From an uncultured Pseudomonadota bacterium (GTDB lineage: Bacteria > Pseudomonadota > Gammaproteobacteria > Steroidobacterales > Steroidobacteraceae): a stretch of 64,000 nucleotides of DNA. The stretch is taken from NCBI GenBank assembly GCA_903938365.1, contig CAJACZ010000063.1:8712-72711 (forward strand), written 5' to 3'. Under the pieces are notes generated by a model. The model was given only the letters and a program-made list of their open reading frames with translations. It made no database searches and was not told where the DNA came from. The position numbers and the translations under genes were made by a program. Shown piece by piece: positions 11,144 through 37,051 of the stretch. Each line of letters starts with the position of its first letter. The stretch's first letter is position 1.

Positions 11144-11352
11144 AGGCTGCAGGGATCATCCGTGAATCGGCGGGAGCGCACTGGGAAAAGCGCGGGAATG
11201 CCCTGTGGGTGTGCTGCCCGAGCTGCGACACCTGGTTTCCCGCGAGCCCGGCGATGCTGGCGGCCACTGCGCCGCCGTCCTGCTGCCCGGCATGCCACCA
11301 TGAATTCAACCTCACGGCGATCGAGCCGAAGACGACGACAAGGAGCAAGTGA
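11140..11352 (+). CDS. 70-aa zinc-ribbon protein (candidate small D-type subunit of the UbiD enzyme)
   Basis: It is buried in the long shadow ORF 10201..11352. ATG 11140 overlaps the UbiD stop (ATGA). It carries two CCPxC motifs (CCPSC, CCPAC) 19 residues apart. Its 3' end contains AGGAG, which serves the next gene. Confidence 0.6.
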   Translation: MKAAGIIRESAGAHWEKRGNALWVCCPSCDTWFPASPAMLAATAPPSCCPACHHEFNLTAIEPKTTTRSK

Positions 11353-12069: not shown

Positions 12070-12079
12070 GTCCCGCGCC

Positions 12080-12823: not shown

Positions 12824-12825
12824 AC

Positions 12826-13647: not shown

Positions 13648-14523
13648 ATGACCCGATCCTCCGCCTTCCCGATCCTCGCCGCGCTGCTGCTTGCGCTGCT
13701 GTCGGGCCCCGCGCCCGCGGCCACCGGCACGTTCGATCTCGACGATCCCGCGCAGCGGCTGGAGGCCTACGTGCGGGTCAACGGCGACACCAGCGGCAAG
13801 GCGGTGCCGCAGTGGGCTTCGGGCATCGTCTATGCGCATGTGCCGGGCGAGAAGCCCCGCGCGCTGTTCGGGGTCGAGGTGCTGGGCATGGGCCGCTTCG
13901 AGAAGATCGAGGGCGGTTACCTGCGCCTGCACCGCGAGATCGGCTACTACACCGACCTCAAGACGGGCAAGGTGCTCGACCGCTGGTTCAACCCCTGGCT
14001 GCAGCGCGAGGTCGAGGTGGTGCCGATCCAGAACGACCCGGTCAACCGCCGCTTCACGGTCGCGGATTCCACGTTCAACGTGCAGGTTTCGGGTGAAGAC
14101 GTGGTCTTCTTCCGTGAAGTCCCGCTGCGCTACCCGAACCCCCTCGATCGCGCGAAGTATCCGCTGCACTCATCGGGCGATTTCTACGAAGCCATCGAGA
14201 TGTTCAACACCTTCGCCCGGCGCGAGGATCTCGCGAACCCGGCGTTGACTTCCGTGCCCAGCACCGGCAGCTGGACCCGGATGGGGCCGTGGCTGCCGTG
14301 GATGGAAATGGGTCTGCACCCGGGCTTCCTGCTCTACCACAGCCGCAGCCTGAAGCCGGTCGATGGCCTCGAAGGGGTGCCCCTGGCGCTGCGCGAGCGC
14401 ATCGCGCGTGACAACCCCAAGTACCTCGAGGCGCCGGCGAAGTTCACCTCTCCCGACGAGACCAGCTGGACATTCTTCAAGAAGCTCATCGACGAACGCC
14501 GCCGGAAGGCAGATGCACGCTGA
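13648..14523 (+). CDS. secreted hypothetical protein (possibly DUF1838-like)
   Basis: Clear signal peptide (AFPILAALLLALLSGPAPAA). No catalytic motif was recognised. The family assignment is from memory only. Confidence 0.65.
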   Translation: MTRSSAFPILAALLLALLSGPAPAATGTFDLDDPAQRLEAYVRVNGDTSGKAVPQWASGIVYAHVPGEKPRALFGVEVLGMGRFEKIEGGYLRLHREIGYYTDLKTGKVLDRWFNPWLQREVEVVPIQNDPVNRRFTVADSTFNVQVSGEDVVFFREVPLRYPNPLDRAKYPLHSSGDFYEAIEMFNTFARREDLANPALTSVPSTGSWTRMGPWLPWMEMGLHPGFLLYHSRSLKPVDGLEGVPLALRERIARDNPKYLEAPAKFTSPDETSWTFFKKLIDERRRKADAR

Positions 14524-21450: not shown

Positions 21451-22200
21451 TCAGACCAGGCCTTTCTTCTGCAGGGCCGCGAACAGTTCCTGCGCGTCCT
21501 TCACCATGACGCCACGGGAGCGCTGCGCAGGAGGTTCGAACTTGACCATCTGCACCTGCTGCAGGGCTTCGACGCCCAGCGATGCGAGGTCCAGGATGTC
21601 GAGCGGCTTCTTCTTGGCCTTCATGATGTCCGGCAGCTTGACGTAGCGTGGCTCGTTCAGCCGCAGGTCCGTGGTGATCACCGCCGGGAGATCGACATTC
21701 AGGGTCTCGAGGCCCGCGTCGACCTCGCGCGTGACCGTGGCGGTGCCGCCTTCGATCTCCACCCGGGAGGCGAAGGTGGCCTGCGGGCGGCCCCACAGCG
21801 CGGCGAGGATCTGGCCGGTCTGGCTGGCGTCGTCGTCGATGGCCTGCTTGCCCAGGATGGCGAGCATGACCTGCTCCTTTTCGGCCAGCTTGTGCAGGAC
21901 GCGCGCGGCGACCAGCGGCTCGATGATCGCGTCGGTCTGCACGTGGATGGCGCGATCCGCGCCCATCGCGAGCCCGGTGCGCAGCTGCTGCTGGCAGTCG
22001 GAGGGGCCGATCGTCACCACGATCACTTCCTCGGCCAGGCCTTTTTCCTTCAGTCGCAGGGCCTCTTCGAGGGCGATCTCGTCGAAGGGGTTGATGCTCA
22101 TCTTCACGCCGTCGGTGACGACGCCGGTGCCGTCCGGTTTCACCCGGATCCGGACGTTGTAGTCCACGACTCGCTTGATCGCGACGAGGATGCGTTTCAT
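21451..22200 (-). CDS. etfB: electron transfer flavoprotein beta subunit
   Basis: MKRILVAIKRVVDYNVRIRV..., a typical EtfB, 17 nt upstream of etfA. Confidence 0.92.
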   Translation of the reverse strand: MKRILVAIKRVVDYNVRIRVKPDGTGVVTDGVKMSINPFDEIALEEALRLKEKGLAEEVIVVTIGPSDCQQQLRTGLAMGADRAIHVQTDAIIEPLVAARVLHKLAEKEQVMLAILGKQAIDDDASQTGQILAALWGRPQATFASRVEIEGGTATVTREVDAGLETLNVDLPAVITTDLRLNEPRYVKLPDIMKAKKKPLDILDLASLGVEALQQVQMVKFEPPAQRSRGVMVKDAQELFAALQKKGLV

Positions 22201-22363: not shown

Positions 22364-23179
22364 TCAGCGTGCGGGGGGCGCGGGACGCGGCTGACGGGGC
22401 GGGTCGCGCTGCTGCTCGGCGAAGGTCTGCCGGATCTTCTGTGCGGTGTCGCGCAGCTTGGGCAGGAAGCGCTCGACGGCGAGTTTCAGCGGCACTGCGG
22501 TGCCGCTGAAGCGCATCATCACCGCCGCCAGCACCCGGTCGTCGATCATGATCGGCACGGCCATGCTGATTTCGTCCGACACGCGCCTCGGCCTCACCGC
22601 AGAGGCGTAGCCCTGCATGCGCGCCTCGTTGAGCAGTTTCATCACTTCGGTGCGGTTCTTCGCCAGTTCGTCCTCTTCGCGGTTGGAGCGCGCGAGGATG
22701 TCCAGCAGCGACTCGCGCTGGGTGGGGGAGGAGAACGCGAGGTAGACCCGGCCCGAGGAGGACGTGAGTATCGGCACGCGGAAGCCGGCCGAGTAGCGCT
22801 CGACGGCCAGCGGGCTGCGGTGGTCGGTGGATTCGCGCACCATCATCGAACTGCCCGACAGCGAGGCGATGGCCACGGGCCAGACGATTTCCTTGCCGAG
22901 TTCGTGGATGTACGGGCGGGCGATCTGGGTCACCCAGGCTTCGTCGTCGTAACCATCCGAGAGACCCCGGACCATGATCGTGAGCCGGTAGCGGTCGTCG
23001 GCGCCGTCGCGATAGACGAAGCCGGCATGGCTGAGCGTCTCGAGGATCCGGTAGGTGGTAGTGCGCGGCAGCCTGATTTCCTGCGCGACCTCGGACACGG
23101 TGGCCCCGTTCTTCAGGTTGAGCACGGTGAGCGCATCGAGGCCGCGGATCAGCGCTCGGATCGGTCGCGTGGAGTCCAT
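22364..23179 (-). CDS. IclR-family transcriptional regulator
   Basis: N-terminal HTH (RALIRGLDALTVLNLKNGATVSEVAQEIRLPRTTTYRILETL) plus an IclR effector domain. Confidence 0.9.
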   Translation of the reverse strand: MDSTRPIRALIRGLDALTVLNLKNGATVSEVAQEIRLPRTTTYRILETLSHAGFVYRDGADDRYRLTIMVRGLSDGYDDEAWVTQIARPYIHELGKEIVWPVAIASLSGSSMMVRESTDHRSPLAVERYSAGFRVPILTSSSGRVYLAFSSPTQRESLLDILARSNREEDELAKNRTEVMKLLNEARMQGYASAVRPRRVSDEISMAVPIMIDDRVLAAVMMRFSGTAVPLKLAVERFLPKLRDTAQKIRQTFAEQQRDPPRQPRPAPPAR

Positions 23180-23436
23180 TGAGTTGCCCGTCTCCTGAAA
23201 CAGCCGTGAAGTCGGTAATCGGAACTGGCTTTAGTGTAGGAAGGTCGGCGCCCGCTGTCCAACAAGCGGTCACCGTCCCGCCCCTCGGACAGGCGTCCGG
23301 GTCCCCGGCCATAATCCCGCCAGCGCGATCCATGCCGCGAATGACTGGCAGGAGGCGCGCCGTACCGGCATATTCGCCGCTCTTTGCAACGGAGGCGCAG
23401 GCCTTCCCGTCCCACTGGAATATCACGGAAGAACGG

Positions 23437-24441
23437 ATGCACTACGACTACATACCGATCACCCATCGTCAGCCGCTCAAATGGCCGGGTGGCAAGCGTG
23501 TCGCGCTGATCATGACGATCAACCTCGAGACCTGGGACCTCACCAAGGACACCGACAAGCCCTATTACGCGGGCGGTCCGGCGATCCTTCCGGACGTGCT
23601 GCCGGGCAACACGCCGGACTTCCCGAACTTCACGTGGCGCGAGTACGGCCAGCGCGTCGGCGTGTTCCGCATGTTCGACATGTTCGACGAGGTCAAGGTG
23701 CGGCCGTCGTGCACGATCAACGCCGTGACCGCATTGCGCCGGCGCCCGATGCTCGATGCCGCCCTGTCGCGTGGCTGCGAGATCCTCGCGCACAACTACG
23801 AGCAGGGCGAACTGCTGACCAACTTTGCCAAGGACCCGGCGGCCGAGCGCGACATCATCGAGCGCAGCCTGAAGGTCTATGAAGAGCAGGTCGGTCGCAA
23901 GGCCAAGGGCTGGCTGTCTTCGTCGCTGCGCGGCACGCTCAACACGGCCGACATCCTGGCCGAGCACGGACTCAAGTTCTATTGCGACCTGATGAACGAC
24001 GACCAGCCCTACCTGATCCAGACACCGCACGGGCCGATCGTCTCCACGCCCTACACGAACGAGATCAACGATTTCACGATCCTCACGCGTCGCAACCACA
24101 CGACCAGCGAGTTCCGCGACATCCTGATCGAGGAACTGTCGGTGCTCTACAAGGAAGGTGCCGAGAGCGGCCGGATGATGAATGTCGGCCTGCACCCGCA
24201 TGTCAGCGGCCGCGCATACCGCATCCGCGCGCTGCGTGAGTTCGTGCGCTTCGCGAAGTCGCTCAAGGGCGTCTGGTGGGCCACGCGCGAGGAGATCGCC
24301 GAGTGGTACCTGCAGAACCACGAAAGCCACATTCCCACCGGGGGTGCCGCGGTGACCGCCCGCGCGCCCCGCAAGCCCGCCCGCAAGACGCCGGCGAAGG
24401 CGAGCACCCGCAGCAAGCCCGGCAAGTCACGGAGGTCCTGA
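23437..24441 (+). CDS. polysaccharide-deacetylase-fold hydrolase (PuuE-allantoinase-like) with basic C-terminal tail
   Basis: Internal start ATG 23437 (MHYDYIPI..). Blocks WPGGKRVALIMTINLE, REYGQRVGVFR and a LHPH region. Tail APRKPARKTPAKASTRSKPGKSRRS. Confidence 0.78.
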   Translation: MHYDYIPITHRQPLKWPGGKRVALIMTINLETWDLTKDTDKPYYAGGPAILPDVLPGNTPDFPNFTWREYGQRVGVFRMFDMFDEVKVRPSCTINAVTALRRRPMLDAALSRGCEILAHNYEQGELLTNFAKDPAAERDIIERSLKVYEEQVGRKAKGWLSSSLRGTLNTADILAEHGLKFYCDLMNDDQPYLIQTPHGPIVSTPYTNEINDFTILTRRNHTTSEFRDILIEELSVLYKEGAESGRMMNVGLHPHVSGRAYRIRALREFVRFAKSLKGVWWATREEIAEWYLQNHESHIPTGGAAVTARAPRKPARKTPAKASTRSKPGKSRRS

Positions 24442-24443
24442 AC

Positions 24444-25958
24444 GTGTCACTCGAAATCGCACGAATCGAACCGCAGACCGCAGGGGCGCGCCGCTTCCTC
24501 GCTGACGGCAAGCGCCGCATGCTCATCGGCGCCGACTGGGTCGAAGCCCTGTCGGGTCGCCGCCTGGATACGCTCAACCCGGCCACGGGTGAGGTGCTCG
24601 CCAGCATCCCGGCTGGCGATGCCGCAGACGTCGATCGCGCCGTCGCCGCGGCCCGTGCGGCCTTCGAATCCCCCGGTTGGCGGGACATGACCGGCGCGCA
24701 GCGCGCCCGGCTGCTGTGGAAGATGGCCGACCTCATGGAGGCCAACCTGGACGAACTGGCCGAACTCGAGACTCTCGACCAGGGCAAGCCGGTGTGGGTG
24801 GGCAAGTACGCCGAGATACCCGGCGCCATCGATCAGTTCCGGTATTTCGCCGGGCAGGCCACCAAGATCGAGGGGACGACGATCCCCACTTCGATCAGCT
24901 ACCAGCCCGCCGGCAAGAAGATCTTCGCCTACACGACCAAGGAGCCGATCGGCGTGGTCGGGGCGATCGTGCCCTGGAACTCGCCCATCGTCCTGACCTG
25001 CATGAAAATCGCGCCCGCGCTCGCCGCAGGCTGCACGATGGTGCTCAAGCCGGCCGAGGACACCTCGCTCACGGCACTCAGGCTCGGCGAACTGCTGCTC
25101 GAGGCGGGCTTTCCGCCCGGCGTGCTGAACATCGTCACGGGCCTGGGCGAAGCGGCCGGCGCCGCGCTTGCGGCGCATCCGGGCGTGGACAAGATCGGTT
25201 TCACGGGCTCCACCGAGGTCGGCAAGCTGATCGTCGATGCGGCCAAGGGCAACCTGAAGAAGCTGACCCTGGAACTCGGTGGCAAGTCGCCTGCCGTGGT
25301 GCTGGATGACGCCGACCTCGACCTGGCGATCCCGGGCGTGGCCAACGCGATCTTCTTCAACAGCGGTCAGGTCTGCGTGGCCGGTTCGCGCCTCTACGTG
25401 CACGAGAAGATCTTCGACCGCGTCGTCGAGGGTGTCGCGAACTATGCGCGGGGCCTCAAGCTCGGCAACGGCCTCGATCCCTCCACCCAGATGGGTCCCG
25501 TGGTCAGCCGCAAGCAGGCGGACCGGATCGCGGGCTACATCGAATCGGGGCTGGCCGAGGGCGCGCGTGCGGTGGCCGGGGGCCATCAGGTCGGCGGCGC
25601 GGGAACCTTCATCGAGCCGACGGTGCTGGTGGACGTGAAGCCTGCCATGAAGGTCGTGCGCGAGGAGATCTTCGGTCCCGTGGTCGTCGCATCGCCCATC
25701 CGGTCGATCGATGAAGTCCCGGCGATCGCCAACGACACGGTGTACGGGCTCGCGGCGAGCATCTGGACCACGAACCTGTCCTCGGCGCACCGGCTTGCTT
25801 CCCAGATCCGCGCCGGCACGGTCTGGATCAACTGCCACTCGATGTACGACTCGAGCCTGCCGATCGGCGGCGTCAAGCAGTCGGGCTGGGGTCGCGACAG
25901 CGGTCACCAGGCCGTCGACAATTACCTCGAGACCAAGACCATCTGTGCGGTGATCTGA
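24444..25958 (+). CDS. NAD(P)-dependent aldehyde dehydrogenase
   Basis: GTG 24444 with GGAGG about 8 nt upstream. ELGGKSPAVV and GQVCVAGSRLYV motifs. Confidence 0.9.
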   Translation: MSLEIARIEPQTAGARRFLADGKRRMLIGADWVEALSGRRLDTLNPATGEVLASIPAGDAADVDRAVAAARAAFESPGWRDMTGAQRARLLWKMADLMEANLDELAELETLDQGKPVWVGKYAEIPGAIDQFRYFAGQATKIEGTTIPTSISYQPAGKKIFAYTTKEPIGVVGAIVPWNSPIVLTCMKIAPALAAGCTMVLKPAEDTSLTALRLGELLLEAGFPPGVLNIVTGLGEAAGAALAAHPGVDKIGFTGSTEVGKLIVDAAKGNLKKLTLELGGKSPAVVLDDADLDLAIPGVANAIFFNSGQVCVAGSRLYVHEKIFDRVVEGVANYARGLKLGNGLDPSTQMGPVVSRKQADRIAGYIESGLAEGARAVAGGHQVGGAGTFIEPTVLVDVKPAMKVVREEIFGPVVVASPIRSIDEVPAIANDTVYGLAASIWTTNLSSAHRLASQIRAGTVWINCHSMYDSSLPIGGVKQSGWGRDSGHQAVDNYLETKTICAVI

Positions 25959-25984: not shown

Positions 25985-27352
25985 ATGTCAGTGACTGGAA
26001 CAACGCGTCTGTCGGCGTCGCAACTGCTGGCCTACGCCGCGCCCACCGTCGCCCTGCAGGCGATGATGGTCCCGTTGCTGATGTTCCTGCCGCCCACCTA
26101 CTCGCAGGTGGCGGGCCTGCCGCTGGCGGTCGTCGGCGCCATGTTCGCGATCGGGAGGGCTTTCGAGGCCTTCACCGATCCGCTGATCGGGGCGCTGTCG
26201 GACCGTACGACGGCCTCGTTCGGCCGGCGGCGTATCTGGATGGCTGCGGGCGTGCCCATCGCGCTGCTGGCCACCTGGTTCCTGCTGACCCCGCGCCCGG
26301 ACACCACGGCGATCGACCTGCTGGTCTGGCTGGTGGTGTTCTACGCGGGCTGGACCATGGTGTTCATCCCGCACCAGACCTGGGGCGGCGAACTCTCCGG
26401 CGACTACCACGAGCGGACGCGCATTGCGGGCTTCCGCGAGACCGGTGCCTTCGTCGGTTACCTGCTCGCATCGGCGATCCCGCTGGTCTACCTGCAGTTC
26501 ATGCTCGGCATTGCGGCGCCGACCTATGAGCAGATCGTGCACACGGTCGGCTGGTTCTTCGTGATCGCGTTGCCGCTGGCGGTGCTGTGGTGCTTCCGCG
26601 CCGTGCCGGACGTGGCGCGCAACGAGGGCGAACGCCCTCCGTCCTGGGGTGACCTGTTCGCGATCCTCAAGCGCAACAAGCCCTTCGCGCGGCTGGTCAC
26701 CGCATTCCTGGTCGATCGCGTGGCGATGGGAACGTATTTCTTCGTGCAGCCGCTGTTCGTGAGCTTTGCCCTCGGCATGCCCGAGAACGTGCTCTGGGTG
26801 GCGATCGCCAACACGGTGGCTGCGGTGCTCTTCGCGCCGCTCTGGGTGCCGGTGACGCGGCTGCTCGGCAAGCACCGCACCTATTGCGCCGCCAACCTCG
26901 TGACGATGCTCGCCTACCTGATGCTGTTCTTCGCCGAGCCGGGGCAGCTCTGGGTGGTCGTGGTGGCGAACCTGGTGATGGGCTTCGGCAACGGCGGCAC
27001 CATGATCACGCCGCCGGCGATGGCCGCCGACGCCGTGGACCACGATGAACTGCAGTCGGGCGTGCAGCAGATGGGCGGGCACATGGCGTTCCTCGCCTTT
27101 GTCTTCAAGGCCGGAATGGCTTTCGGACCGCTCGCCGGCGGCCTGTTCCTGGCCGTTTTCGGCTACGAGCAGGCCGGGCAGGTGCTCGATTCCGAGGCGT
27201 CCCTGGGCATCCGTCTGTGCGCGTCGTGGTTGCCGATGCTGCTGCTGCTGGTGCCCGTCGCACTGATGTGGAACTTTCCGATCGACTCTAAGCGACATGC
27301 GCAGATCCGCGCCTCGCTCGAGGCGCGGCGCGGAGCGGTCCAGAGGGGCTGA
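25985..27352 (+). CDS. MFS transporter, glycoside-pentoside-hexuronide (GPH):cation symporter-like
   Basis: 455 aa, 12-TM pattern, with GPH-type motif GALSDRTTASFGRRR. Confidence 0.82.
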   Translation: MSVTGTTRLSASQLLAYAAPTVALQAMMVPLLMFLPPTYSQVAGLPLAVVGAMFAIGRAFEAFTDPLIGALSDRTTASFGRRRIWMAAGVPIALLATWFLLTPRPDTTAIDLLVWLVVFYAGWTMVFIPHQTWGGELSGDYHERTRIAGFRETGAFVGYLLASAIPLVYLQFMLGIAAPTYEQIVHTVGWFFVIALPLAVLWCFRAVPDVARNEGERPPSWGDLFAILKRNKPFARLVTAFLVDRVAMGTYFFVQPLFVSFALGMPENVLWVAIANTVAAVLFAPLWVPVTRLLGKHRTYCAANLVTMLAYLMLFFAEPGQLWVVVVANLVMGFGNGGTMITPPAMAADAVDHDELQSGVQQMGGHMAFLAFVFKAGMAFGPLAGGLFLAVFGYEQAGQVLDSEASLGIRLCASWLPMLLLLVPVALMWNFPIDSKRHAQIRASLEARRGAVQRG

Positions 27353-27380: not shown

Positions 27381-28574
27381 TTGAAGATCCTGCGTTTCAT
27401 CTGGCGTGCGCTGCTCGGACTCGTGGCCGTCGTCCTGGTCGTGGTGCTGGTCTTTTATTTCCGTGATCCAGCGGTCCTCAGGCGGCTGGCGACGGGCCCC
27501 GGCATGGGCGTGGTCGACCAGACGGCACGGGCCCAGCCGCAGGAGCCCGTGCCGGGTGTCGAGCGCGAAGACATCCTCACAGGTCCGCCCGGGGCCTTCG
27601 ACCCGGCGGGCATCGAACGCGCCGAGGCCTATGCGGCGCAGACGCAGTCGGTCGCGCTTCTGGTCTATCACCGCGGCGCCCTGCGTCACGAGAAGTACTG
27701 GCCGGGCTACGACGCTGATTCCGTCACCGACACCTTCTCGGCGCACAAGACCGTGCAGGCACTGCTCGTCGGGGCGGCCATCGCGGACGGCCTGATCGGC
27801 TCGGTGGACGATCCGGTGGCGAAGTACCTGCCGGAGTTCGCGCAGGACGAACGTCGGTCGATCACGATCCGCCACCTGCTGCAGATGAGTTCCGGGCTGG
27901 AGATCCCGCGCTTCGGTACGTGGACGTCCTGGCGCATCACGCTCGGCAGCGACCTGCCGGGCGTCGTCACGTCGCTCAAGGCCGAGAAGCCGTCGGGCAC
28001 CGAGTTCCAGTACGCCAACGCGAACGCGCAGCTGCTGGGGCTCGTGCTCCAGAAGGCCAGCGGCAAGCGTTACGCCCAGTACCTCTCGGAGCGGCTGTGG
28101 AGCCGCCTGGGCGCGCCCTCCGCGGCGGTCTGGCTGGATCGCGAAGGGGGCACGCCGCGCACCTTCTGCTGCATCTACACGACGGCTCGCGCCTGGCTCC
28201 GCGTGGGTCGCCTGATCATGGACCAGGGGCGCGTGGGCGCCGACCAGGTGATCCCCGCGGCCTGGATCCGGGACATGACCACGGCTTCGACGCTCAATCC
28301 GAACTATGGCTACCAGATCTGGCTCGGGTCACCACCGGGGACGCAACGCAAGTACCATGACAAGACCATCAAGGCCTACCACTCCGAGCCTTTCCTGGCC
28401 GACGACATCATCTACATCGACGGATTCGGAGGGCAACGCGTGTACATGATCCCCTCGCAGGAACTGATCATCGTGCGCACCGGCAAGGCGCTCATCGACT
28501 GGGACGACGCGAAGATCCCCAACGCGATCCTGCAGTCGATACTGCCGGCCGCAGTGCCCGGGGCGTCGCCATGA
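27381..28574 (+). CDS. membrane-anchored serine hydrolase (beta-lactamase/class C esterase fold)
   Basis: TTG 27381 with GGGAGGAG 6 nt upstream. N-terminal TM segment (ALLGLVAVVLVVVLVFYF). Ser-x-x-Lys motif SAHK. Confidence 0.83.
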   Translation: MKILRFIWRALLGLVAVVLVVVLVFYFRDPAVLRRLATGPGMGVVDQTARAQPQEPVPGVEREDILTGPPGAFDPAGIERAEAYAAQTQSVALLVYHRGALRHEKYWPGYDADSVTDTFSAHKTVQALLVGAAIADGLIGSVDDPVAKYLPEFAQDERRSITIRHLLQMSSGLEIPRFGTWTSWRITLGSDLPGVVTSLKAEKPSGTEFQYANANAQLLGLVLQKASGKRYAQYLSERLWSRLGAPSAAVWLDREGGTPRTFCCIYTTARAWLRVGRLIMDQGRVGADQVIPAAWIRDMTTASTLNPNYGYQIWLGSPPGTQRKYHDKTIKAYHSEPFLADDIIYIDGFGGQRVYMIPSQELIIVRTGKALIDWDDAKIPNAILQSILPAAVPGASP

Positions 28575-29137
28575 GCACGGCACGGGGATCCGGCGGCGCC
28601 GGCGCGCTTCACGCCATCGAGAAGCTCGTCTCGGTGCTCATCTTCGCGCTGGTGCTGTTCCAGCTCTACCAGTCGACCAAGGTGGGGGTGACGCCGCGGG
28701 GCACGCCGGCGCGCGAAGCCCTGCAGCACCTGCACATCTCGCTCGGACTCACGGCCACGCTCCTGATCGTGCTGCGCCTGTGGCTCTGGGCGCGGCTGCC
28801 GCGGCCGCCGCGGCCGGAGCGTGTGCCTGCGTCGGCTGACGCGCTGGCGCGGCACTGCAACCTCGGGTTGTACCTGACGATCCTGGCGTTCTGCAGCACG
28901 GGTCCGCTGTTTGCCTGGTCCGAGGGGCATGCCGTCTCGTGGTTCGGGCTGGTGAATTTCCCGGCGTTGCTCCAGCCCGGTTATCGCGCATCGGTCACGC
29001 TCGGCTACCTGCACAGCGCTTTCGGCTTCTTCGTGCTGTACCTCGCCGCTTTCAGCGTGCTGGTGGGCTTGTGGCAGGCCCTGCGCTACCGGGTCGGACC
29101 CTGGCGCATGCTGCCGGGCTTCGGCTGGGGGAAGTGA
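28571..29137 (+). CDS. cytochrome b561-family membrane protein
   Basis: The ATG overlaps the upstream stop (ATGA). There are four hydrophobic helices with conserved-looking His residues (LHAIEK, LQHLHISLG, ARHCNLG, LGYLHSAFG). Confidence 0.72.
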   Translation: MSTARGSGGAGALHAIEKLVSVLIFALVLFQLYQSTKVGVTPRGTPAREALQHLHISLGLTATLLIVLRLWLWARLPRPPRPERVPASADALARHCNLGLYLTILAFCSTGPLFAWSEGHAVSWFGLVNFPALLQPGYRASVTLGYLHSAFGFFVLYLAAFSVLVGLWQALRYRVGPWRMLPGFGWGK

Positions 29138-29138
29138 C

Positions 29139-29651
29139 ATGAGTGACCGCAACACCTACGGCGTCGGCGCCAAACTGCTGCATGCCTGCATCTTTGCGGG
29201 CCTGCTCGCGGTCGCCGCCTGGATGCCCTACAGAATCTTCGGCGTCGTGCCGTTCACCACGGGCAAACAGCTGGTTGAGTCCGGTCCGCCGCCGGTGGTG
29301 GACCCCTACGCCGGCGTGGGTGAGGCGCCCGTGCTGGCGGGCAAAACGCAGAAGGATTTCATGTGGTGCCGCTTCTGTCACAGCTTCGAGCAGGGTGGCG
29401 CGCACGCGGTGGGGCCCAATCTCCACCGGGTCTTCGGCCGTCGCGCGGCCAGCGCCCCCGGGTTCTATTATTCCGCAGCGCTGGTGGAGGCCGGCAAGGG
29501 GGGGCTGGTCTGGGATGAACGCAGGATCGCGGAGCTGATCGCCGATCCGGCGAAGTTCCTCGGCGGCAAACACCGCATGCGTTACTCGCCGATCACCGAC
29601 CCGGTCGAGCGTGAGCAGATCGTCGCGGCGCTGAAGGCGGCGACCAAATGA
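29139..29651 (+). CDS. membrane-anchored mono-haem c-type cytochrome (c2/mitochondrial-type)
   Basis: Haem motif CRFCH, GPNLHRVFGRR, and a Met-ligand region GGKHRMRY. N-terminal hydrophobic segment (ACIFAGLLAVAAW). It starts 1 nt after the upstream stop. Confidence 0.85.
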   Translation: MSDRNTYGVGAKLLHACIFAGLLAVAAWMPYRIFGVVPFTTGKQLVESGPPPVVDPYAGVGEAPVLAGKTQKDFMWCRFCHSFEQGGAHAVGPNLHRVFGRRAASAPGFYYSAALVEAGKGGLVWDERRIAELIADPAKFLGGKHRMRYSPITDPVEREQIVAALKAATK

Positions 29652-31108
29652 CGGCCTCGCGTCGCGGCTTTCTGGGCGGTGCCTCTGCATCGCTGGCCGC
29701 CGGGCTGGTGCTGGGTCCCGGCGCTGCGACCAGAGTCCGCGCGGCGGAGACGAGCGACGTCATCGTGCTGGGTGCGGGCCTCTCGGGTCTGCGTGCGGCC
29801 AGCCTGCTGGCCGAGCAGGGTGCGCGCGTGACCGTGCTCGAGGCAGGGCGCCGCGTCGGCGGACGGGCCCGCACGGTGGTGCTCGACGGCATCCCCTTCG
29901 AGCTCGGCGCCTCAGAGGTCGGCGCCGACTACGGGCGGATCATCGACGCCGCGCGCCGCGCCGGCGCGACGCTGCAGCCGCAGGTGCGCGCGGCCGGCGC
30001 CATGAGCTTCCATGTCGGGGGCGAACTGCTGCGGCCGGAGCAGTGGAGCGCGGCGAGTGTGAACCGGACCGTGGGTGCGGAGCGCGAGGTCCTGCCTCAC
30101 ATGCTCGAGACGCATTACGCGTTGCGGCTCAACCCGCTCAAGGTCGAGGCCGGCTCCTGGCTCGATCCCCAGTGGTCATCGCTCGACGTGTCCGCCGGCG
30201 CGTGGCTGCGCTCTCAGGGCATTTCGGATGCCGCAATCGAGTTGATGAGTGTGTCGACGGACTTCACGGACATGTGGTCGATGTCGGCGCTGGGCATGCT
30301 GCGCGACGTGACGCGCCTGATGCTGGCCGGCTTTGGCCGCCAGCATGGGGGGCCGATGTACGGGGGGGCGGGCCTGCCGAACCAGTTCAACGTCATCGGC
30401 GGTACCGAGCGCCTGCCCGAGGCCATGGCGCGCGGCCTGGGCGACTCGGTGCGGCTCGGCAAGATCGTCGCGCGCATCGTCAGCGGACCGTCGCGCGTCG
30501 AGGTCGAATGCCTCGACGGCTCGCGCTTCAGCGGCGACTTCGTTGTCTGCACGCTGCCTTTCTCGGCGCTGCGGCACGTGTCGATCCTGCCGGCGTTGCC
30601 CACGGCCCAGGCAGAATCCGTCGCGGCTTGCGCCTATGGCGGCACGACCCACGTCATCCTCGAGGTCAAGACCCCGTTCTGGGACAGCGACGGCTTCGGC
30701 CCCTCGATGTACACCGACGGCCCGCTGGAGCGCGTGTTCGCGCCCAAACAGCCGGACGGCAGCATTCCGTTCCTGCGCGTCTGGATCAACGGCTATGCCG
30801 CTGATCGACTCGACCAGTTGCCGCCCGCCGAACTCGGGGCCTGGGTGCTGCGCGAATTCGAGAAGATGCGCCCTTCGGCGGTCGGCAAGCTGGCGGTGCG
30901 CGAGGTGTTCTCCTGGGGCGCGGAACCGCATATCCGCGGCCACCGCCACGTGTTCCTTCCCGGCCAGGTGAACCGCTTCGCGCGCGAGATGGATCGCCCG
31001 TGGCAACGCATCCACTTCGCCGGCGAGCATCTGCGGCGCGTCGAGGTGGGCATGGAAGGCGCGATGGAGACCGCCGACCGGGCCGTGATCGAGGTGCTCT
31101 CGGCCTAG
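29648..31108 (+). CDS. Tat-exported flavin-containing amine oxidase-fold oxidoreductase
   Basis: The ATG overlaps the upstream stop (ATGA). Twin-arginine signal SRRGFLGGASASLAAGLVLG. FAD fold DVIVLGAGLSGLRAASLL..VLEAGRRVGGR. C-terminal FAGEH block. Confidence 0.88.
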   Translation: MTASRRGFLGGASASLAAGLVLGPGAATRVRAAETSDVIVLGAGLSGLRAASLLAEQGARVTVLEAGRRVGGRARTVVLDGIPFELGASEVGADYGRIIDAARRAGATLQPQVRAAGAMSFHVGGELLRPEQWSAASVNRTVGAEREVLPHMLETHYALRLNPLKVEAGSWLDPQWSSLDVSAGAWLRSQGISDAAIELMSVSTDFTDMWSMSALGMLRDVTRLMLAGFGRQHGGPMYGGAGLPNQFNVIGGTERLPEAMARGLGDSVRLGKIVARIVSGPSRVEVECLDGSRFSGDFVVCTLPFSALRHVSILPALPTAQAESVAACAYGGTTHVILEVKTPFWDSDGFGPSMYTDGPLERVFAPKQPDGSIPFLRVWINGYAADRLDQLPPAELGAWVLREFEKMRPSAVGKLAVREVFSWGAEPHIRGHRHVFLPGQVNRFAREMDRPWQRIHFAGEHLRRVEVGMEGAMETADRAVIEVLSA

Positions 31109-32091
31109 CGCCGGGCGCGATCGGCGTCCCGCTTCGACTCGAGGCGCGACAACGCCGGCATGGCGGCGCGTGGCGCCGTGCCGGACCGATCGACCAGCCA
31201 CTGCCGCGCCGACGGGTCGTTGCGCAGCCAGGCGTCCAGGAAACGGCCGCTGGTTTCGTTGAACGCCGCGAGGAACTGCGGCGCCTGGGGATGCTTCGGC
31301 AGGTCGTCGCGGCCTACGATGCCGCCGAGGTAGTGGTCCGCGCCGTCGAGCGTGAGCAGGTAATGATCGCCGCCGGGCGCGAAGTCGTAGGGCTGCTTCC
31401 GCCAGGCGTAGCCGCTGAGCCCCGGGGCCTGACGGAGATCCTCGGTGCCGACGGTCACGAGCGTGGGGGCGCGCAGCCTTGCGAAATCCTCCGGGCGCAG
31501 CATCGGCGGGAACACACCGGCACCACTGAAGACGATCACCGCGCCGATGCGCGGGTCGGCCCGCGACAGTTCCTGCCCGCTGGCCGCGTCGAAGTAGGTG
31601 GCGCCACCGAGGGTCTGCGCGACCAGGCCGCCGAACGAATGGCCGGTGGCCGCGATGCGCGTGGTGTCCGCGCGTTCGGCGAGGCCCGGGACCCCGGCGA
31701 GCACTTCGGGCAGGCGCGCGAGAATCAGTCCCATGTCGTCGAGCCGCCAGCCGAAGTGGCGTGGGTCGCCGGCGCCGCGTTTCACGCCGAGCGATACCGA
31801 GTCGCGGTGCGTCGGCGAAATGACCACGTAGCCGCGCGCGGCCCAGGCATCCGCGATCGGGCCGTAGTCGTCCCCGGAGGAGAAGGCGCCGTGGGAGAAC
31901 AGCACGACCGGAAGGTCGCGACCCCGGACCGGGTAGGCGAGCCGCAGCGGGATCGCGCGGCCCTCTGCGGGATCGACGAGCCGGCTTGCGGCCTCGAGGG
32001 TGGCGGGTGCCGCGCGAGTGCCGGCGCATCCGGAGAGCAGACCGCCCAGCGCCAGGAGCGCCGCGACGACCACCCACCCTCGGGCGTTCAT
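31105..32091 (-). CDS. lipoprotein alpha/beta hydrolase (dienelactone hydrolase/PAF-acetylhydrolase-like)
   Basis: The real start is ATG at 32091 (MNARGW..). Lipobox LLSGC. Nucleophile elbow GHSFGG. The start overlaps the upstream stop (ATGA 32088-32091). Confidence 0.8.
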   Translation of the reverse strand: MNARGWVVVAALLALGGLLSGCAGTRAAPATLEAASRLVDPAEGRAIPLRLAYPVRGRDLPVVLFSHGAFSSGDDYGPIADAWAARGYVVISPTHRDSVSLGVKRGAGDPRHFGWRLDDMGLILARLPEVLAGVPGLAERADTTRIAATGHSFGGLVAQTLGGATYFDAASGQELSRADPRIGAVIVFSGAGVFPPMLRPEDFARLRAPTLVTVGTEDLRQAPGLSGYAWRKQPYDFAPGGDHYLLTLDGADHYLGGIVGRDDLPKHPQAPQFLAAFNETSGRFLDAWLRNDPSARQWLVDRSGTAPRAAMPALSRLESKRDADRARR

Positions 32092-33503
32092 GCTGTGCCG
32101 TCGCGCGACAGGGCCAGGCGCGCCGCCGCGTCGCCCGCGAGCGCGCCCAGGGTGATCGCCATGGCGATCCCGACCGCGGGCAGATAGCCGGTGACGTCGG
32201 GGCCCGAGATGCTGCGCGCGGCGCCGCCACCGGCAAACAGGTTCGGGAGTGGCGTGCCGTCGCTGCGGAGCACCTGCGCGTGGTCGTCGATGGCAAGGCC
32301 GCCCTGCGTGTGGAACAGCGCACCGGTGACGCGGAGCGCGCAGAAGGGAGCCTGCAGGGGCTCGGTGCCCTCGAAGCTGCGGCCGAGCCGGTCGGGCTGG
32401 CCCGCGGCCCGGGCAGCGTCGATGGCGGCGTTCTCGCGTTCCAGGGATCCGTCCGGCAGGTTGCAGAGTTTTTCGAGCTCGGCCCAGGAACCCGCCTGCC
32501 TGATCGCACCGACTTCGGCCAGCTGGCGCTGCTCGACGGAGTGCGCGAGACAGGCCTGGTTGCGCCGGCCGTCGAAGACGACCCAGGCGAGGCCCCGGGG
32601 CTGGGCCAGCACGGGCACGCACATGCCCGAGATGTTGGCGTTCTCGTGGGTGAAGCGCTGGCCTGCCACGTTCACGAGGAAACCGCCTTCGAGCAGCAGG
32701 GGATGGGGAACGATCATCTGCTGCGGGTCGGCCAGGGTGCCGAGGCCCTGGTACGCGGTCATGTCCGCCAGGGCGCCGCCGAGCTGCTCACCCCACTCGA
32801 TGCCTTCGCCCTGGTTGCCCTCATGTCCGAAGTACCGGGCACCGGCCATCTCGGGGATGTAGCGGGCGATCATGGCCTGGTTGCCGCCGAATCCACAGGT
32901 GGCCAGCACGATCGCCTCGCAGCCGAGCACTTCCACGACGCCACCGGGTCGGGCGACCCGGAGGCCGCGCACGCGTCCGTCCGGATCGGCGTAGAGGTCC
33001 GTGACATGGGCTTCGGTCATGACCTGCACGCCGGCTCGTTCGCAGGCCGCTCCGAGCAGGGCCAGCATCTCTTCCCCGGAGCGGCCCGGCGGGATGTGCA
33101 GACGGGGCCGCGAGTGGCCGAGCCCGGTCCACTTGAAGTCGAGCAGCAGCGGTACCTGGTGGCTCGCGGCCAGCCAGTCGACCACGCGGCCGGATTCGCG
33201 GCCGATGACCCGGGTGAGTGCAGCGTCGGCCCGGCCCTCGGTCTTGGCCATCACGTCGGCGACGAACAGCTCCACGCTGTCCTCGACACCGTGTCTGCGC
33301 TGCTCCGCCGAGTTGATGGCGCACATGGCACCCAGGGACATCGAGGTGCTGCCCCAGGGCCGCTTGTCGCGCTCCAGGACCAGGACCTCCGCTCCGGCAT
33401 CGTGGGCGGCCAGCGCGGCGGTGAGGCCGCAGGCGCCCGCGCCGATGACGGCGACCGGTACTGAAAACTCGAATTCGGGGATGTCGTTGCGGATGATGCT
33501 CAT
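32088..33503 (-). CDS. FAD-dependent oxidoreductase (fumarate reductase/KstD-like flavoprotein)
   Basis: The real start is ATG at 33503 (MSIIRNDIPEFEF). Dinucleotide fold VAVIGAGACGLTAALAAHDAGAEVLVLE. Confidence 0.85.
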   Translation of the reverse strand: MSIIRNDIPEFEFSVPVAVIGAGACGLTAALAAHDAGAEVLVLERDKRPWGSTSMSLGAMCAINSAEQRRHGVEDSVELFVADVMAKTEGRADAALTRVIGRESGRVVDWLAASHQVPLLLDFKWTGLGHSRPRLHIPPGRSGEEMLALLGAACERAGVQVMTEAHVTDLYADPDGRVRGLRVARPGGVVEVLGCEAIVLATCGFGGNQAMIARYIPEMAGARYFGHEGNQGEGIEWGEQLGGALADMTAYQGLGTLADPQQMIVPHPLLLEGGFLVNVAGQRFTHENANISGMCVPVLAQPRGLAWVVFDGRRNQACLAHSVEQRQLAEVGAIRQAGSWAELEKLCNLPDGSLERENAAIDAARAAGQPDRLGRSFEGTEPLQAPFCALRVTGALFHTQGGLAIDDHAQVLRSDGTPLPNLFAGGGAARSISGPDVTGYLPAVGIAMAITLGALAGDAAARLALSRDGTA

Positions 33504-33708: not shown

Positions 33709-35301
33709 ATGCAGCAGGCAGTCCATCTCATGCCCGGCGCCGTCGACGCCGCGATCGGCGAACTCGAGCGCGTCCTGGGCAAGGAATACGTCATCACGGA
33801 ACGCGCCGAGCGCGAGTTCTACTCGCAGGACGTCTATCGCAGCGGCGAGCTCCCTGCGGCGATCATCCGCCCGGGCAGCACCGACGAGCTTTCGCGCGCG
33901 CTGAAGGCCATCGCGCCGGCGGGCCTGCCGATCGTGCCGCGCGGCGGCGGCATGTCCTACACGGACGGTTACCTGCCGAAGCGCGCCAATTCGATCATGG
34001 TCGACATGCTGCGCATGAACCGCGTGGTCACCGTGGATGTCGACGACCAGTACGTGACCGTGGAATGCGGCCGCACCTGGAAGGACCTGTTCGATGAACT
34101 GGCGCCCCGGGGCGTGCGGACGCCTTACTACGGCCCGCTGTCCGGCCTGCGCTCCAGCGTAGGCGGCGCGCTTTCCCAGGGCAGCATCTTCCTCGGGTCC
34201 GGGCGCTACGGCGCCGCCGCAGAGTCCGTGATCGGGCTCGATGTCGTGCTCGTCGACGGCACCGTGCTCCGGCTCGGCAGCCATGCGAACCGGAACGGCG
34301 AACCGTTCTTCCGCCAGTTCGGCCCGGACACCATGGGCATGTTCCTGTCGGACTGCGGTGCGCTCGGCATCAAGACCGTCGCCACCTTCCGGCTGGTCCG
34401 GCCGCTGCCCGAATCGCGCTTCATGTCCTTCTCTTTCACGAGCCACACGGCGCTGTTCGCGGCGCTGGCCGAGGTCGCCCGTGCCGATGTCGTCTCCGAA
34501 TGTTTCGGCTTCGATCCGGGACTGCAGGCCGTGCGCATGAAGCGCAGCAGCCTGGCCGCCGACGTCAAGGCGCTGGGCAGCGTGGTGCAGCACTCCGGGG
34601 GCATCCTCAAGGGCCTGAAGGAGGGCGCGAAGGTCGTGCTCGCGGGTCGCAGCTTCCTCAAGGAAGGCACCTTCTCGGTGCATGTCTCGGTCGACGGGCG
34701 TGACGAGGTCGACGCCGAGGCCAAGGCGGCCATCGTGCGCCGGATCATGGGGGCGGGCGGCACCGAGGTCGAGAACACCGTGCCCAAGGTCATGCGCGCC
34801 AACCCTTATGCCGAACTCAACAGCATGCTGGGGCCGAACGGCGAGCGCTGGGTGCCGGTGCATGGCACCGTGCCTTTCAGCCAGGCGAGCCGCATGTACG
34901 ACGTCTGCGAGGCCGTGTTCGCTCGCCACGCCGAGTCCATGGAGAGATACGACATCGACCGCGGCTACCTGTGCTGCACGGTGGGCAACGCGGGCACGCT
35001 GCTCGAGCCGGTGCTGTACTGGCCCGATGCGCGCTCCGCATTCCACGAGCGCGTGCTGGACGCGGCCTATCTGGCGAAGCTCGAGAAGTACGCGCCCAAC
35101 CCGGATGCGGCGGCGGCGGTGCTGCGGATCCGCGAGGACCTCGCCGTGGCCTTCATGGAACAGGGCGCCGTGAGCTTCCAGCTCGGCAAGTTCTACCGCT
35201 ACCAGGAAGGCCTCGAGCCTTCGGCGCAGTGGATGCTCAAGCAGCTCAAGCAGCTGATGGATCCGCGCGGGCTCATGAACCCGGGCAGCCTGGGGCTTTG
35301 A
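33709..35301 (+). CDS. FAD-linked oxidase (PCMH/GlcD-type FAD-binding domain)
   Basis: 530 aa with FAD-binding block IVPRGGGMSYTDG. Confidence 0.85.
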   Translation: MQQAVHLMPGAVDAAIGELERVLGKEYVITERAEREFYSQDVYRSGELPAAIIRPGSTDELSRALKAIAPAGLPIVPRGGGMSYTDGYLPKRANSIMVDMLRMNRVVTVDVDDQYVTVECGRTWKDLFDELAPRGVRTPYYGPLSGLRSSVGGALSQGSIFLGSGRYGAAAESVIGLDVVLVDGTVLRLGSHANRNGEPFFRQFGPDTMGMFLSDCGALGIKTVATFRLVRPLPESRFMSFSFTSHTALFAALAEVARADVVSECFGFDPGLQAVRMKRSSLAADVKALGSVVQHSGGILKGLKEGAKVVLAGRSFLKEGTFSVHVSVDGRDEVDAEAKAAIVRRIMGAGGTEVENTVPKVMRANPYAELNSMLGPNGERWVPVHGTVPFSQASRMYDVCEAVFARHAESMERYDIDRGYLCCTVGNAGTLLEPVLYWPDARSAFHERVLDAAYLAKLEKYAPNPDAAAAVLRIREDLAVAFMEQGAVSFQLGKFYRYQEGLEPSAQWMLKQLKQLMDPRGLMNPGSLGL

Positions 35302-36661: not shown

Positions 36662-36745
36662 GTTCCTGCCTTGCGGGAGTGGTCCCGAGTTCCTAGACTG
36701 CTGCGCAGTCACAACCCACGGACCACGCCCGGGAAGGATCCTGCC

Positions 36746-37051
36746 ATGTCCAAGATCATTGTGCTGTTCAACCTCAAGCCCGGTGTCGACGTCGCGGACT
36801 ACGAGAAGTTTGCGCGCGAAACCGACCTCCCGATCGTCAACGCACTGCCCTCGGTGCGCCGTTTCGAGGTGCTGAAGGCGCAGGGTCTCCTGAGTGGTGG
36901 AGCCGCCCCCTACCAGTACATCGAAGTGATCGACCTCGAGAGCCTCGAGCAACTGGGCCGGGACACCGCGACCGAGACGATGCAGAAGGTCGCGGCGACC
37001 TTCCGCTCCATGGCCGACGAACCGCAGTTCATCCTCACCGAAAGCCTGTGA
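36746..37051 (+). CDS. EthD/REDY-like small alpha+beta barrel protein
   Basis: 101 aa starting at ATG 36746 (MSKIIVLFNLKPGVDVADYEKF...). The family call is by resemblance only. Confidence 0.55.
   Translation: MSKIIVLFNLKPGVDVADYEKFARETDLPIVNALPSVRRFEVLKAQGLLSGGAAPYQYIEVIDLESLEQLGRDTATETMQKVAATFRSMADEPQFILTESL

Follow-up and report, generated by a model that had tools for sequence, protein, structure and literature searches.

A Probable Cytochrome-Dependent Flavin Amine Oxidoreductase

The flavin amine oxidoreductases (FAOs) NicA2 and Pnao of Pseudomonas putida S16 pass their electrons to the c-type cytochrome CycN (PMC12224317). In a later survey, Akram et al. 2025 drew their sample from the top 5000 BLAST hits to NicA2 and found that more than 100 of 2911 FAOs, falling into three clades, combine a twin-arginine translocation (Tat) signal with an adjacent cytochrome c (CytC) gene. 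Stopped-flow measurements on representatives revealed reaction at 10^4-10^6 M-1 s-1 with their own CytC and slow reaction with O2. Adjacency of a CytC gene was a better predictor than the Tat signal, and Tat-only FAOs react fast with O2. One clade uses membrane-bound diheme c4 cytochromes and one subclade contains FAO-CytC fusions, while nearly all of the sequences possess a lysine at the flavin N5, a residue that promotes O2 reactivity (PMC12224317). Here we describe a locus that can be compared with these systems. It lies in a 64,000-nucleotide stretch of contig CAJACZ010000063.1 (assembly GCA_903938365.1) from an uncultured member of the Steroidobacteraceae, the whole of which is referred to below as the window, and consists of four tightly packed genes for a membrane-anchored hydrolase, a cytochrome b561-like membrane protein, an anchored cytochrome c and a Tat-signal FAO.

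The locus resembles NicA2/Pnao-CycN and the pairs of Akram et al. in the FAO fold, the twin-arginine signal and the co-operonic c-type cytochrome, and the predicted logic is also the same, with electrons from periplasmic amine oxidation entering the respiratory chain instead of forming H2O2. In contrast, the enzyme is only remotely related to NicA2 and Pnao, which score 110 and 108 bits on a profile of the window FAO family against 179 bits for both monoamine oxidase (MAO) B and snake-venom L-amino-acid oxidase (LAAO), a placement made by score and fold comparison with PDB landmarks. The N5 lysine is replaced by histidine, and the cytochrome differs from CycN in being tethered to the membrane and paired with, or elsewhere fused to, a b561-like protein. 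The clade 1 FAOs of Akram et al. (P. aeruginosa, Burkholderia) likewise have a membrane-bound cytochrome partner, for which kinetics in solution may understate the coupling. In the window, however, the partner is a monoheme cytochrome of mitochondrial/c2 type on a single transmembrane (TM) anchor, accompanied by a heme b subunit, and not a diheme c4. Partners of the b561 or beta-lactamase-fold type are not mentioned by Akram et al. (PMC12224317), and a full-text literature search that combined b561, amine oxidase, cytochrome c and twin-arginine returned no papers.

A NicA2/CycN-like reading is the best explanation of the locus. We regard it as moderately probable that the FAO is exported by the Tat route and acts in the periplasm as an amine dehydrogenase, which the co-translated, tethered cytochrome c reoxidizes, with the b561-like subunit adding a second, periplasm-proximal heme. 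The first-pass annotation of this DNA had described an independent and more elaborate version of the NicA2/CycN design. The word “independent” is fair, given the 179 against 110 bits, but the novelty was overstated, as more than 100 pairs of Tat-FAO and CytC have been published (PMC12224317). The principle of cytochrome-c-dependent amine “oxidases” is known from work between 2021 and 2025, and we prefer to think of the locus as a variation on it rather than as a new principle. What is new here is an FAO lineage nearer to MAO and LAAO than to NicA2, the loss of the N5 lysine in most of its members, a b561/cytochrome c pair that also exists as fusions, a degenerate single-heme b561, and a module that is not exclusive to FAOs.

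The Four-Gene Core

The four co-directional genes, as given by the list of open reading frames (ORFs), are:

27381-28574, + strand: beta-lactamase-fold serine hydrolase, 397 amino acids (aa), TTG start at 27381
28571-29137, + strand: b561-like four-helix membrane protein, 188 aa
29139-29651, + strand: anchored monoheme class I cytochrome c, 170 aa
29648-31108, + strand: Tat-signal FAO, 486 aa

Direct reading of the sequence reveals ATGA at 28571-28574 as the junction between hydrolase and b561, TGA-c-ATG at 29135-29141 between b561 and cytochrome c with 29138 as the lone spacer base, and a second ATGA at 29648-29651, a 4-nt overlap, between cytochrome c and FAO. A public metagenome scaffold of 111 kb contains the identical DNA, and a second, independent gene caller delivers the same products of 397, 188, 170 and 486 aa from it; the G+C content of the window is ~68%. 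The four genes are translationally coupled, and coordinates, junctions and independent gene calls all agree with the tight packing that the first-pass annotation had described. The motifs that it had quoted are also all present: the hydrolase contains SAHK, the cytochrome c has CRFCH, GPNLHRVFGRR and KHRMRY, and the flavoprotein has SRRGFLGG followed by DVIVLGAGLSGL. Its assignment of the four proteins as beta-lactamase-fold hydrolase, b561-type protein, single-heme cytochrome c and amine-oxidase-fold flavoprotein holds in sequence and structure-model searches.

The Flavoprotein and Its Family

The flavoprotein belongs to PF01593 (E 7.6e-57), and DVIVLGAGLSGL is its FAD dinucleotide-binding motif. 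Its N-terminus has the sequence S-R-R-G-F-L, a mildly hydrophobic h-region of 18 residues and a basic c-region that ends in VRA followed by AE. A profile of the FAO family was scanned against one genome per species, which gave 80 loci, and a second sampling was started from b561 homologues; loci are cited below by L numbers. The arginine pair is invariant in 26 aligned FAO homologues. A clean S/T-R-R-x-F/L motif is seen in the majority of the 92 family FAO genes of the fetched loci, and those without it are mainly over-extended or truncated ORFs. In the AlphaFold2 model, with a predicted local distance difference test score (pLDDT) of 87, residues 1-29 are disordered, as for a signal peptide. 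The invariant pair and this disorder bear out the twin-arginine type that had been assigned to the N-terminus, and export is predicted.

The closest Foldseek matches of the model are bacterial and human MAO, putrescine oxidase (PuO), cyclohexylamine oxidase and LAAO, with a TM-score of about 0.75, and NicA2 is not among the top 50. On the family profile, putrescine oxidase scores 144 bits and 6-hydroxy-L-nicotine oxidase 100 bits. The position of the flavin-N5 lysine (K296 in MAO-B, K326 in LAAO, K340 in NicA2) is occupied by His335 in the window FAO (codon 30650-30652). Across the 92 family genes the same column contains glutamine in 41, arginine in 19, histidine in 11 and lysine in 11, irrespective of whether a cytochrome c gene is adjacent. 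Because the N5 lysine is mostly absent and the scores lie nearer to MAO and LAAO, this family is probably outside the NicA2-centered sample of Akram et al.

Two specific identities were considered and rejected. For MAO A/B, Tyr435 of the aromatic cage (Tyr398/Tyr435 in MAO-B) corresponds to an invariant Gly468, the position of Cys397 is a gap so that there is no cysteine for a covalent 8-alpha-S-cysteinyl FAD, and Lys296 corresponds to His335. For the snake-venom type of LAAO, Arg90 of the carboxylate clamp (Arg90/Tyr372) is replaced by Gln/Glu, the Tyr372 region reads “ervfa”, Trp465 is replaced by Gly468 and Lys326 by His335. The family also has cyanobacterial members (L028, L035, L040, L044, L050, L055, L065 and L076), which possess RR motifs such as NRRDFIGGLSQS and no nearby cytochrome c gene. 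Synechococcus contains the twin-arginine L-amino-acid oxidases AoxA and AoxB, and the L-arginine dehydrogenase Slr0782 feeds plastoquinone (PMC2652061).

The Cytochrome c and Natural b561-Cytochrome c Fusions

A Pfam search of the cytochrome c gave no match, and its identity was resolved with NCBIfam and with phmmer against the PDB, where horse and human cytochrome c are matched with E of about 1e-18. The CRFCH motif is the single CXXCH of the protein and aligns with the CSQCH / CAQCH of human / horse cytochrome c, while the methionine of KHRMRY aligns with the axial Met80 (GTKMIF) of the horse protein and is kept in all orthologues. On these alignments the protein is a monoheme class I cytochrome of the mitochondrial / c2 type. 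The N-terminus contains one hydrophobic segment at ~residues 9-27, followed by a conserved PYRIFGVVPFTT stretch and a proline-rich linker. Rhodobacter cytochrome c_y and Paracoccus c552 are built in a similar way: a TM anchor at the N-terminus leads through a linker to a periplasmic heme c domain of mitochondrial type. These cytochromes shuttle electrons between bc1 and terminal oxidases and, unlike the window protein, are not known to share a locus with a dehydrogenase or a b561-like protein.

In Azospirillum, Niveispirillum, Nitrospirillum and a Hydrogenophaga metagenome-assembled genome, a single gene for a protein of ~407 aa combines the four b561-like helices with three further TM helices and the same c domain. 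This gene comes after an FAO orthologue (40-43% identity), except in L053, where it faces it. Fused genes next to an FAO are located at:

L015, 9570-10793: fused b561-c
L017, 9568-10791: fused b561-c
L022, 9639-10865: fused b561-c
L032, ~2127-3353: fused b561-c
L053, 5310-6539, - strand: fused b561-c

The fusions beside FAOs in L015/L017/L074, L022, L032 and L053 define a sister clade. An exhaustive profile search further identified P0319 (364 aa), in which a b561 and an anchored cytochrome c, both of the window type, are joined directly, with five TM helices and the c domain. The fusions therefore come in two forms, 7 TM + c (~407 aa) and 5 TM + c (364 aa), and make up at least 137 clusters at 90% identity, found in Azospirillaceae and many sphingomonads. 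NCBI labels them only “c-type cytochrome” or “hypothetical”, JGI “cytochrome c2/cytochrome b561”, and the family appears to be uncharacterized.

In the fusions, an internal TM helix takes the place of the anchor of the window cytochrome c. Because both termini of E. coli CybB, the structural relative of the b561-like protein, are cytoplasmic and the number of extra helices is odd, the topology of the fusions places the c domain in the periplasm. The comparison also indicates that the N-terminal hydrophobic segment of the window protein is a true membrane anchor, and we infer from the fusions that it is left uncleaved. As a pair that is split in the window is fused elsewhere, we take the two cytochromes to be a single functional unit whose c domain is periplasmic.

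The b561-Like Protein

The b561-like protein scores 21.3 bits against PF01292, below the Pfam gathering cut-off of 30.1. Searched by sequence against the PDB, it matches E. coli CybB (5oc0, E 8e-6) and nothing else, and CybB is also the only significant fold match (Foldseek E 4e-5, TM-score 0.74-0.80) of its AlphaFold2 model, which has a pLDDT of 88.5 and four helices at residues 7-40, 46-75, 87-117 and 138-173. The two proteins have in common the four-helix bundle, equal length and topology, a periplasm-side histidine pair in TM2/TM4 and a C-terminal motif of RMLP type. CybB is a superoxide:ubiquinone oxidoreductase in which the periplasm-side heme 2 takes the electron, and the cytoplasm-side heme 1 together with H87, H151 and H158 forms the quinone site (PMC11869295). 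The window protein, in contrast, has neither the cytoplasm-side heme ligands nor the quinone-site histidines, and in every case it comes either with a partner cytochrome c or as a fusion with one.

This difference is clear in the alignments. Just three histidines are invariant across the 21 split-type homologues, namely His55 (TM2), His120 (periplasmic TM3-TM4 loop) and His148 (TM4), and the fusions keep the same positions. CybB H13 and H151, the ligands of heme 1, align with window Ser21 and Ala159, respectively. Window His97, near the position of H87, is not conserved, the residues aligned to the quinone site H87, H151 and H158 are not histidine, and no N-side histidine is invariant in the 21 homologues or in the fusions. 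The full CybB sequence used in one alignment agrees with the part shown in the PDB sequence match. Typing of distant b561 representatives by histidine pattern with hmmalign was unreliable past the nearest ~15, with TM1 unaligned and register shifts, and was not used for conclusions. An invariant TPRGTPAREALQ loop lies next to the predicted heme site at the periplasmic face, and the periplasmic TM1-TM2 loop (TPRGTPAR) is basic and highly conserved.

Because only the periplasm-side histidine pair is kept and there is no N-side histidine, the family can at most hold one bis-His heme b, which would be near the periplasmic face. This suggests that the subfamily is a single-heme “half” b561, and the histidine pattern rules out a canonical diheme CybB/superoxide oxidase (SOO) identity. 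A trans-membrane electron route of the CybB type is unlikely, because the inner heme and the quinone-site histidines are missing. The suggestion that the b561 protein may link the FAO to quinone finds no support in the sequence, in which nothing corresponds to H13 or H151 of CybB or to the histidines of its quinone site; such a link may exist, but not in the manner of CybB.

The relationship to CybB opens an alternative in which the FAO is a true periplasmic oxidase that produces H2O2 and superoxide, the b561-like protein acts as a CybB-type superoxide oxidase that regains electrons from superoxide and so protects the envelope, and the cytochrome c is an accessory. CybB / superoxide oxidase is the sole structural and sequence relative of the protein, some homologues are labeled “superoxide oxidase” by JGI, and the conserved basic TPRGTPAR loop resembles the superoxide antenna region of CybB. 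However, CybB needs two hemes and the N-side quinone site H87, H151 and H158 (PMC11869295), and here H13 and H151 are Ser and Ala and no N-side histidine is conserved. Superoxide is a minor product of flavoprotein oxidases, and the fusion to a cytochrome c domain points to electron transfer from protein to protein. We consider a protective superoxide oxidase very unlikely.

Electrons might also flow in the opposite direction, from quinol through b561 and cytochrome c to a flavoprotein that would act as a periplasmic reductase, or from the pair to some other periplasmic acceptor. Some b561-type proteins may give quinol-derived electrons to periplasmic c-type cytochromes. The activity of CybB is reportedly reversible (PMC11869295). 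This reversal is scarcely credible here: the characterized amine enzymes of the FAO fold, including every tested pair of Tat-FAO and CytC, all oxidize C-N bonds, the aldehyde dehydrogenase (ALDH) of the cluster is the expected consumer of an amine-oxidation product, and the N-side quinone site is absent.

Conservation Across Relatives

The four genes form the 3' half of a cluster with the order IclR regulator (- strand), PuuE-like amidohydrolase, ALDH, MFS_2 symporter, hydrolase, b561, cytochrome c and FAO. This complete 8-gene order recurs in L002, L004 and L006, which are from Acidibacter-like Gammaproteobacteria with an FAO identity of 55-66%, and the sampling from b561 homologues recovered it again in L083-L086, L085 being apparently of the same lineage as L002. 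The 8-gene cluster, a conserved feature of soil bacteria, is found with its overlaps retained in at least five distinct Acidibacter-like lineages. On this survey the arrangement is far beyond chance adjacency, and the hydrolase-b561-cytochrome c-FAO order on which the first-pass annotation had leaned is conserved.

In a neighbor-joining tree of the 92 family FAOs, the clades with the split pair and with the fused gene are sisters, the fused clade being composed of Azospirillaceae and Hydrogenophaga. A cytochrome c gene is located within 400 bp of the FAO in 19 of the 92 and within 3.5 kb in 30 of the 92. At least four cytochrome architectures are represented near FAOs: the split anchored c with b561, the fused b561-c, a soluble c2-like protein with a Sec signal (e.g., L024, L033, L016, L071) and other class I cytochromes (L027, L001, L012 and others). 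The pattern tracks the FAO clades, and no cytochrome c gene is seen near the FAOs of cyanobacterial and acidobacterial clades. A 4-nt overlap is also present in L024, where the end of the FAO gene runs into the start of the cytochrome c gene, so that the two are again translationally coupled, in the reverse of the order seen in the window.

Several observations weigh against the NicA2/CycN-like reading. The remaining 62 of the 92 family FAO genes have no nearby cytochrome c gene and are nevertheless of Tat type. In L081/L082 (L081 2119-4375) the order is MFS, hydrolase, b561 and cytochrome c, followed by an alpha/beta-hydrolase and HapK, and in L094 (219-2497) it is hydrolase, fused b561-c and FAD_binding_2; none of the fetched flanks contains an FAO. 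All four of the fused b561-c genes that were sampled independently of the FAO, mostly from sphingomonads, adjoin TonB receptors, DUF1838, methyltransferase or MFS genes, with no FAO within 6 kb. The potential of a His/Met cytochrome c is usually too high for ubiquinone reduction. Finally, Akram et al. state that O2 reactivity is unpredictable from sequence, and most of their dehydrogenases keep the N5 lysine (PMC12224317). The contention that the cytochromes are strictly the FAO's “own” cannot be maintained, as hydrolase-b561-cytochrome c occurs with no adjacent FAO in L081/L082 and L094, and the fusions are found in unrelated sphingomonad contexts.

The alpha/beta-hydrolase and HapK of L081, and the FAD_binding_2 protein of L094, match genes downstream of the FAO in the window, as though loss or relocation had removed the FAO and, in L094, the alpha/beta-hydrolase as well. 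The most constant neighbor of the split-type module is the anchored hydrolase, and those of the fused type are the alpha/beta-hydrolase, DUF1838 and MFS_2.

It is from these FAO-less modules that another explanation draws its strength, namely that the pair of b561 and cytochrome c is an electron module of general use in the membrane, with some other periplasmic client such as the Tat/Sec-exported DUF1838 proteins or an enzyme encoded elsewhere. Its place beside the FAO would then stem from co-regulation of the pathway and not from direct electron transfer between the two, and the FAO could be an O2-using periplasmic oxidase. DUF1838, alpha/beta-hydrolase and MFS_2 genes recur beside the sphingomonad fusions, DUF1838 is also present in 18 of the 80 FAO loci, and Tat-only FAOs react fast with O2 (PMC12224317). 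We judge this to be unlikely. The 4-nt overlap of cytochrome c and FAO is kept in five lineages and arose again, with the order reversed, in another clade, and different types of cytochrome c have been recruited repeatedly beside FAOs of the family. As some of the contigs that lack an FAO are short, with 5-11 kb fetched, an FAO could be present in another part of those genomes. DUF1838 has no recognizable redox cofactor motif or structural relative by sequence.

The NicA2/CycN-like reading can also be taken further. The b561-like/cytochrome c pair, split or fused, would then be an undescribed respiratory entry module of mono-heme b and heme c for Tat-exported enzymes, and the FAO family a further cytochrome-dependent lineage, nearer to MAO/LAAO and free of the N5 lysine. 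Together they would constitute a three-component amine:respiratory-chain oxidoreductase that is wired unlike NicA2/CycN. We put this extension forward tentatively and think it somewhat doubtful.

The Anchored Hydrolase

The hydrolase belongs to PF00144 (E 1.7e-40) and has a single strong N-terminal TM segment at residues 6-24 by hydropathy, and it probably faces the periplasm. Its S-x-x-K (SAHK) and Y-x-N (YAN(AN)) motifs are kept across six orthologues, and a conserved DGFGGQ occupies the expected region of the third motif, which is not the canonical KTG (KTG / HxG-type). The PDB proteins most similar to it are P. aeruginosa PIB-1 (8rlj, 1.5e-24), Lsa45 and the 6-aminohexanoate-dimer hydrolase NylB (1e-15). 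NylB and PIB-1 are class-C-related serine hydrolases with the same PF00144 fold and the same S-x-x-K and Y-x-N motifs. NylB-type enzymes cut amides and free a primary amine, which fits the upstream role proposed for the window hydrolase. The latter differs in being membrane-anchored, and at a similarity of only 1e-15 to 1e-24 its function is a prediction.

Beta-lactamase-fold genes adjoin FAOs independently in other clades of the Tat-FAO family (L007/L008, L021, L070 and L053). L007 and L008 have the order FAO-FAO-BLA-BLA, and tandem FAO paralogues and this adjacency are seen in further clades, which include L068, L016 and L019. The recurrence suggests that the pairing of hydrolase and amine oxidoreductase is a repeated one, and because of it, the release of an amine from an amide or ester precursor by the hydrolase, as had been supposed, is plausible.

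A Proposed Route for Electrons

In the mechanism that we favor, the four genes would make up the periplasmic and membrane-bound portion of a catabolic operon that is under IclR control and serves an amine-containing compound. The anchored hydrolase, together with a lipoprotein alpha/beta-hydrolase encoded immediately downstream, would probably free the amine from its amide or ester precursor in the periplasm. The FAO, exported folded and loaded with FAD via the Tat pathway, would turn a primary or secondary amine into an imine, which on hydrolysis would give an aldehyde. The tethered cytochrome c, and not O2, would take the electrons from the reduced FAO one at a time in two steps, as experiments have shown for NicA2, Pnao and other pairs of Tat-FAO and CytC. 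Heme c would adjoin the lone periplasm-side heme b of the b561-like subunit, generating a small membrane b/c acceptor from which electrons would reach the respiratory chain via quinone near the outer face or via a terminal oxidase. The aldehyde, or a precursor of it, would be imported by the MFS_2 symporter and oxidized by the cytoplasmic StyD-like ALDH.

The transfer of electrons from a Tat-exported periplasmic flavoenzyme to a membrane-bound heme subunit has its counterpart in the FAD-dependent glucose, fructose and gluconate dehydrogenases. These differ in that the enzymes are of GMC type and a triheme cytochrome c reduces ubiquinone.

If this reading is true, the recent reappraisal by which flavin “amine oxidases” are often cytochrome-dependent dehydrogenases would also apply to the part of the superfamily closest to MAO and L-amino-acid oxidase, where a non-O2 acceptor for MAO itself has been raised as a question. 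The family would also lend itself to testing how the flavin-N5 lysine bears on O2 reactivity, and a compact heme b/heme c membrane module, sometimes a single polypeptide, could help to shed light on how electrons move from a periplasmic flavoenzyme to the membrane. In practical terms, amine dehydrogenases coupled to a cytochrome attract interest as biosensor elements that do not depend on O2. If it is not true, the locus would still be a well-conserved but ordinary catabolic operon.

The Wider Cluster and Flanking Genes

Around the four-gene core lie the remaining genes of the cluster and several possible pathway partners:

22364-23179, - strand: IclR-family regulator, divergent from the operon (PF09339 and PF01614)
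23233-23315, no strand: promoter-like region in the divergent spacer that separates IclR from the start of the operon, one sigma-70-like match per strand (consensus matches, weak)
23419-24441, + strand: PuuE-like (allantoinase / polysaccharide-deacetylase-type) amidohydrolase (TIGR03212, E 1.1e-38, below the family cut-off)
24447-25958, + strand: cytoplasmic ALDH, most like phenylacetaldehyde dehydrogenase StyD (PF00171, E 2.5e-178; start uncertain)
25985-27352, + strand: GPH / MFS_2 family cation symporter (PF13347, E 1.9e-75; TIGR00792)
31105-32091, - strand: convergent lipoprotein alpha/beta-hydrolase (PAF-AH / chlorophyllase-like), lipobox LSGC (PF03403 and PF07224, both weak)
32088-33503, - strand: cytoplasmic FAD_binding_2 flavoprotein, beside the VAO-type oxidase
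33709-35301, + strand: VAO-type FAD-linked oxidase (PF01565, E 3.6e-34)

From the PuuE-like gene onward, the gaps between the genes of the cluster are at most about 28 nt. The promoter scan gave matches, all weak, only in the IclR/PuuE intergenic region, and no promoter or terminator site was found inside the operon, which is consistent with a single transcript without being evidence for one. An IclR homologue with 83-87% identity occupies the same position in L002, L004, L006, L083 and L085. The PuuE-like protein has no signal peptide and an uncertain start codon, and its orthologues in the syntenic clusters are 77-91% identical. The MFS_2 gene is kept in the cluster, and the Azospirillaceae version also has one.

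The ALDH scores 636 bits on the StyD model, below the cut-off of 850, and ALDH genes are found near the FAO in 13 of the 80 loci. In the phenylethylamine route of E. coli, TynA and FeaB similarly combine periplasmic amine oxidation with a cytoplasmic aldehyde dehydrogenase of StyD/FeaB type. TynA, however, is a copper/topaquinone (TPQ) oxidase that uses O2, unlike the window flavoenzyme.

The stop codon of the lipoprotein alpha/beta-hydrolase gene overlaps that of the FAO gene. Its homologues come after the fused b561-c in L015/L017/L074, L053, L032 and L091 (Sphingorhabdus) and after the cytochrome c in L081, and some of them have twin-arginine-like signals. The protein is likely a periplasmic pathway partner. 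Taken together, the StyD-like ALDH, the NylB/PIB-1-like hydrolase, the GPH transporter and the PAF-AH-like esterase are suggestive of an amide- or ester-linked amine as the substrate. Homologues of the VAO-type oxidase occur in 10 of the 80 loci, upstream of IclR in L002, L004, L083 and L085 and downstream in L006; this oxidase and the FAD_binding_2 flavoprotein may be further enzymes of the pathway.

The window also contains a copy of DUF1838 (PF08894) at 13648-14523 (+ strand), ~15 kb upstream of the FAO. The DUF1838 proteins of the 18 FAO loci have Sec or twin-arginine signals, and copies lie at ~11.8-12.9 kb in L015/L017/L074, at 11212-12234 in L091 and at 945-3166 in L093. DUF1838 genes adjoin fused b561-cytochrome c genes that have no FAO as well. 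Sequence searches gave no relative of solved structure and the literature no functional account of the family, and DUF1838 may be another periplasmic client or pathway partner.

A separate group of genes at 7030-13620 encodes a TonB-dependent receptor (- strand), a UbiD-family decarboxylase, a Haem_oxygenase_2/TenA-like protein, a short-chain dehydrogenase/reductase (SDR) and a GntR/UTRA regulator. Closer to the cluster, a gene for the beta subunit of electron transfer flavoprotein (ETF) lies at 21451-22200 (- strand), and downstream a gene for a HapK-like protein is located at 36671-37051.

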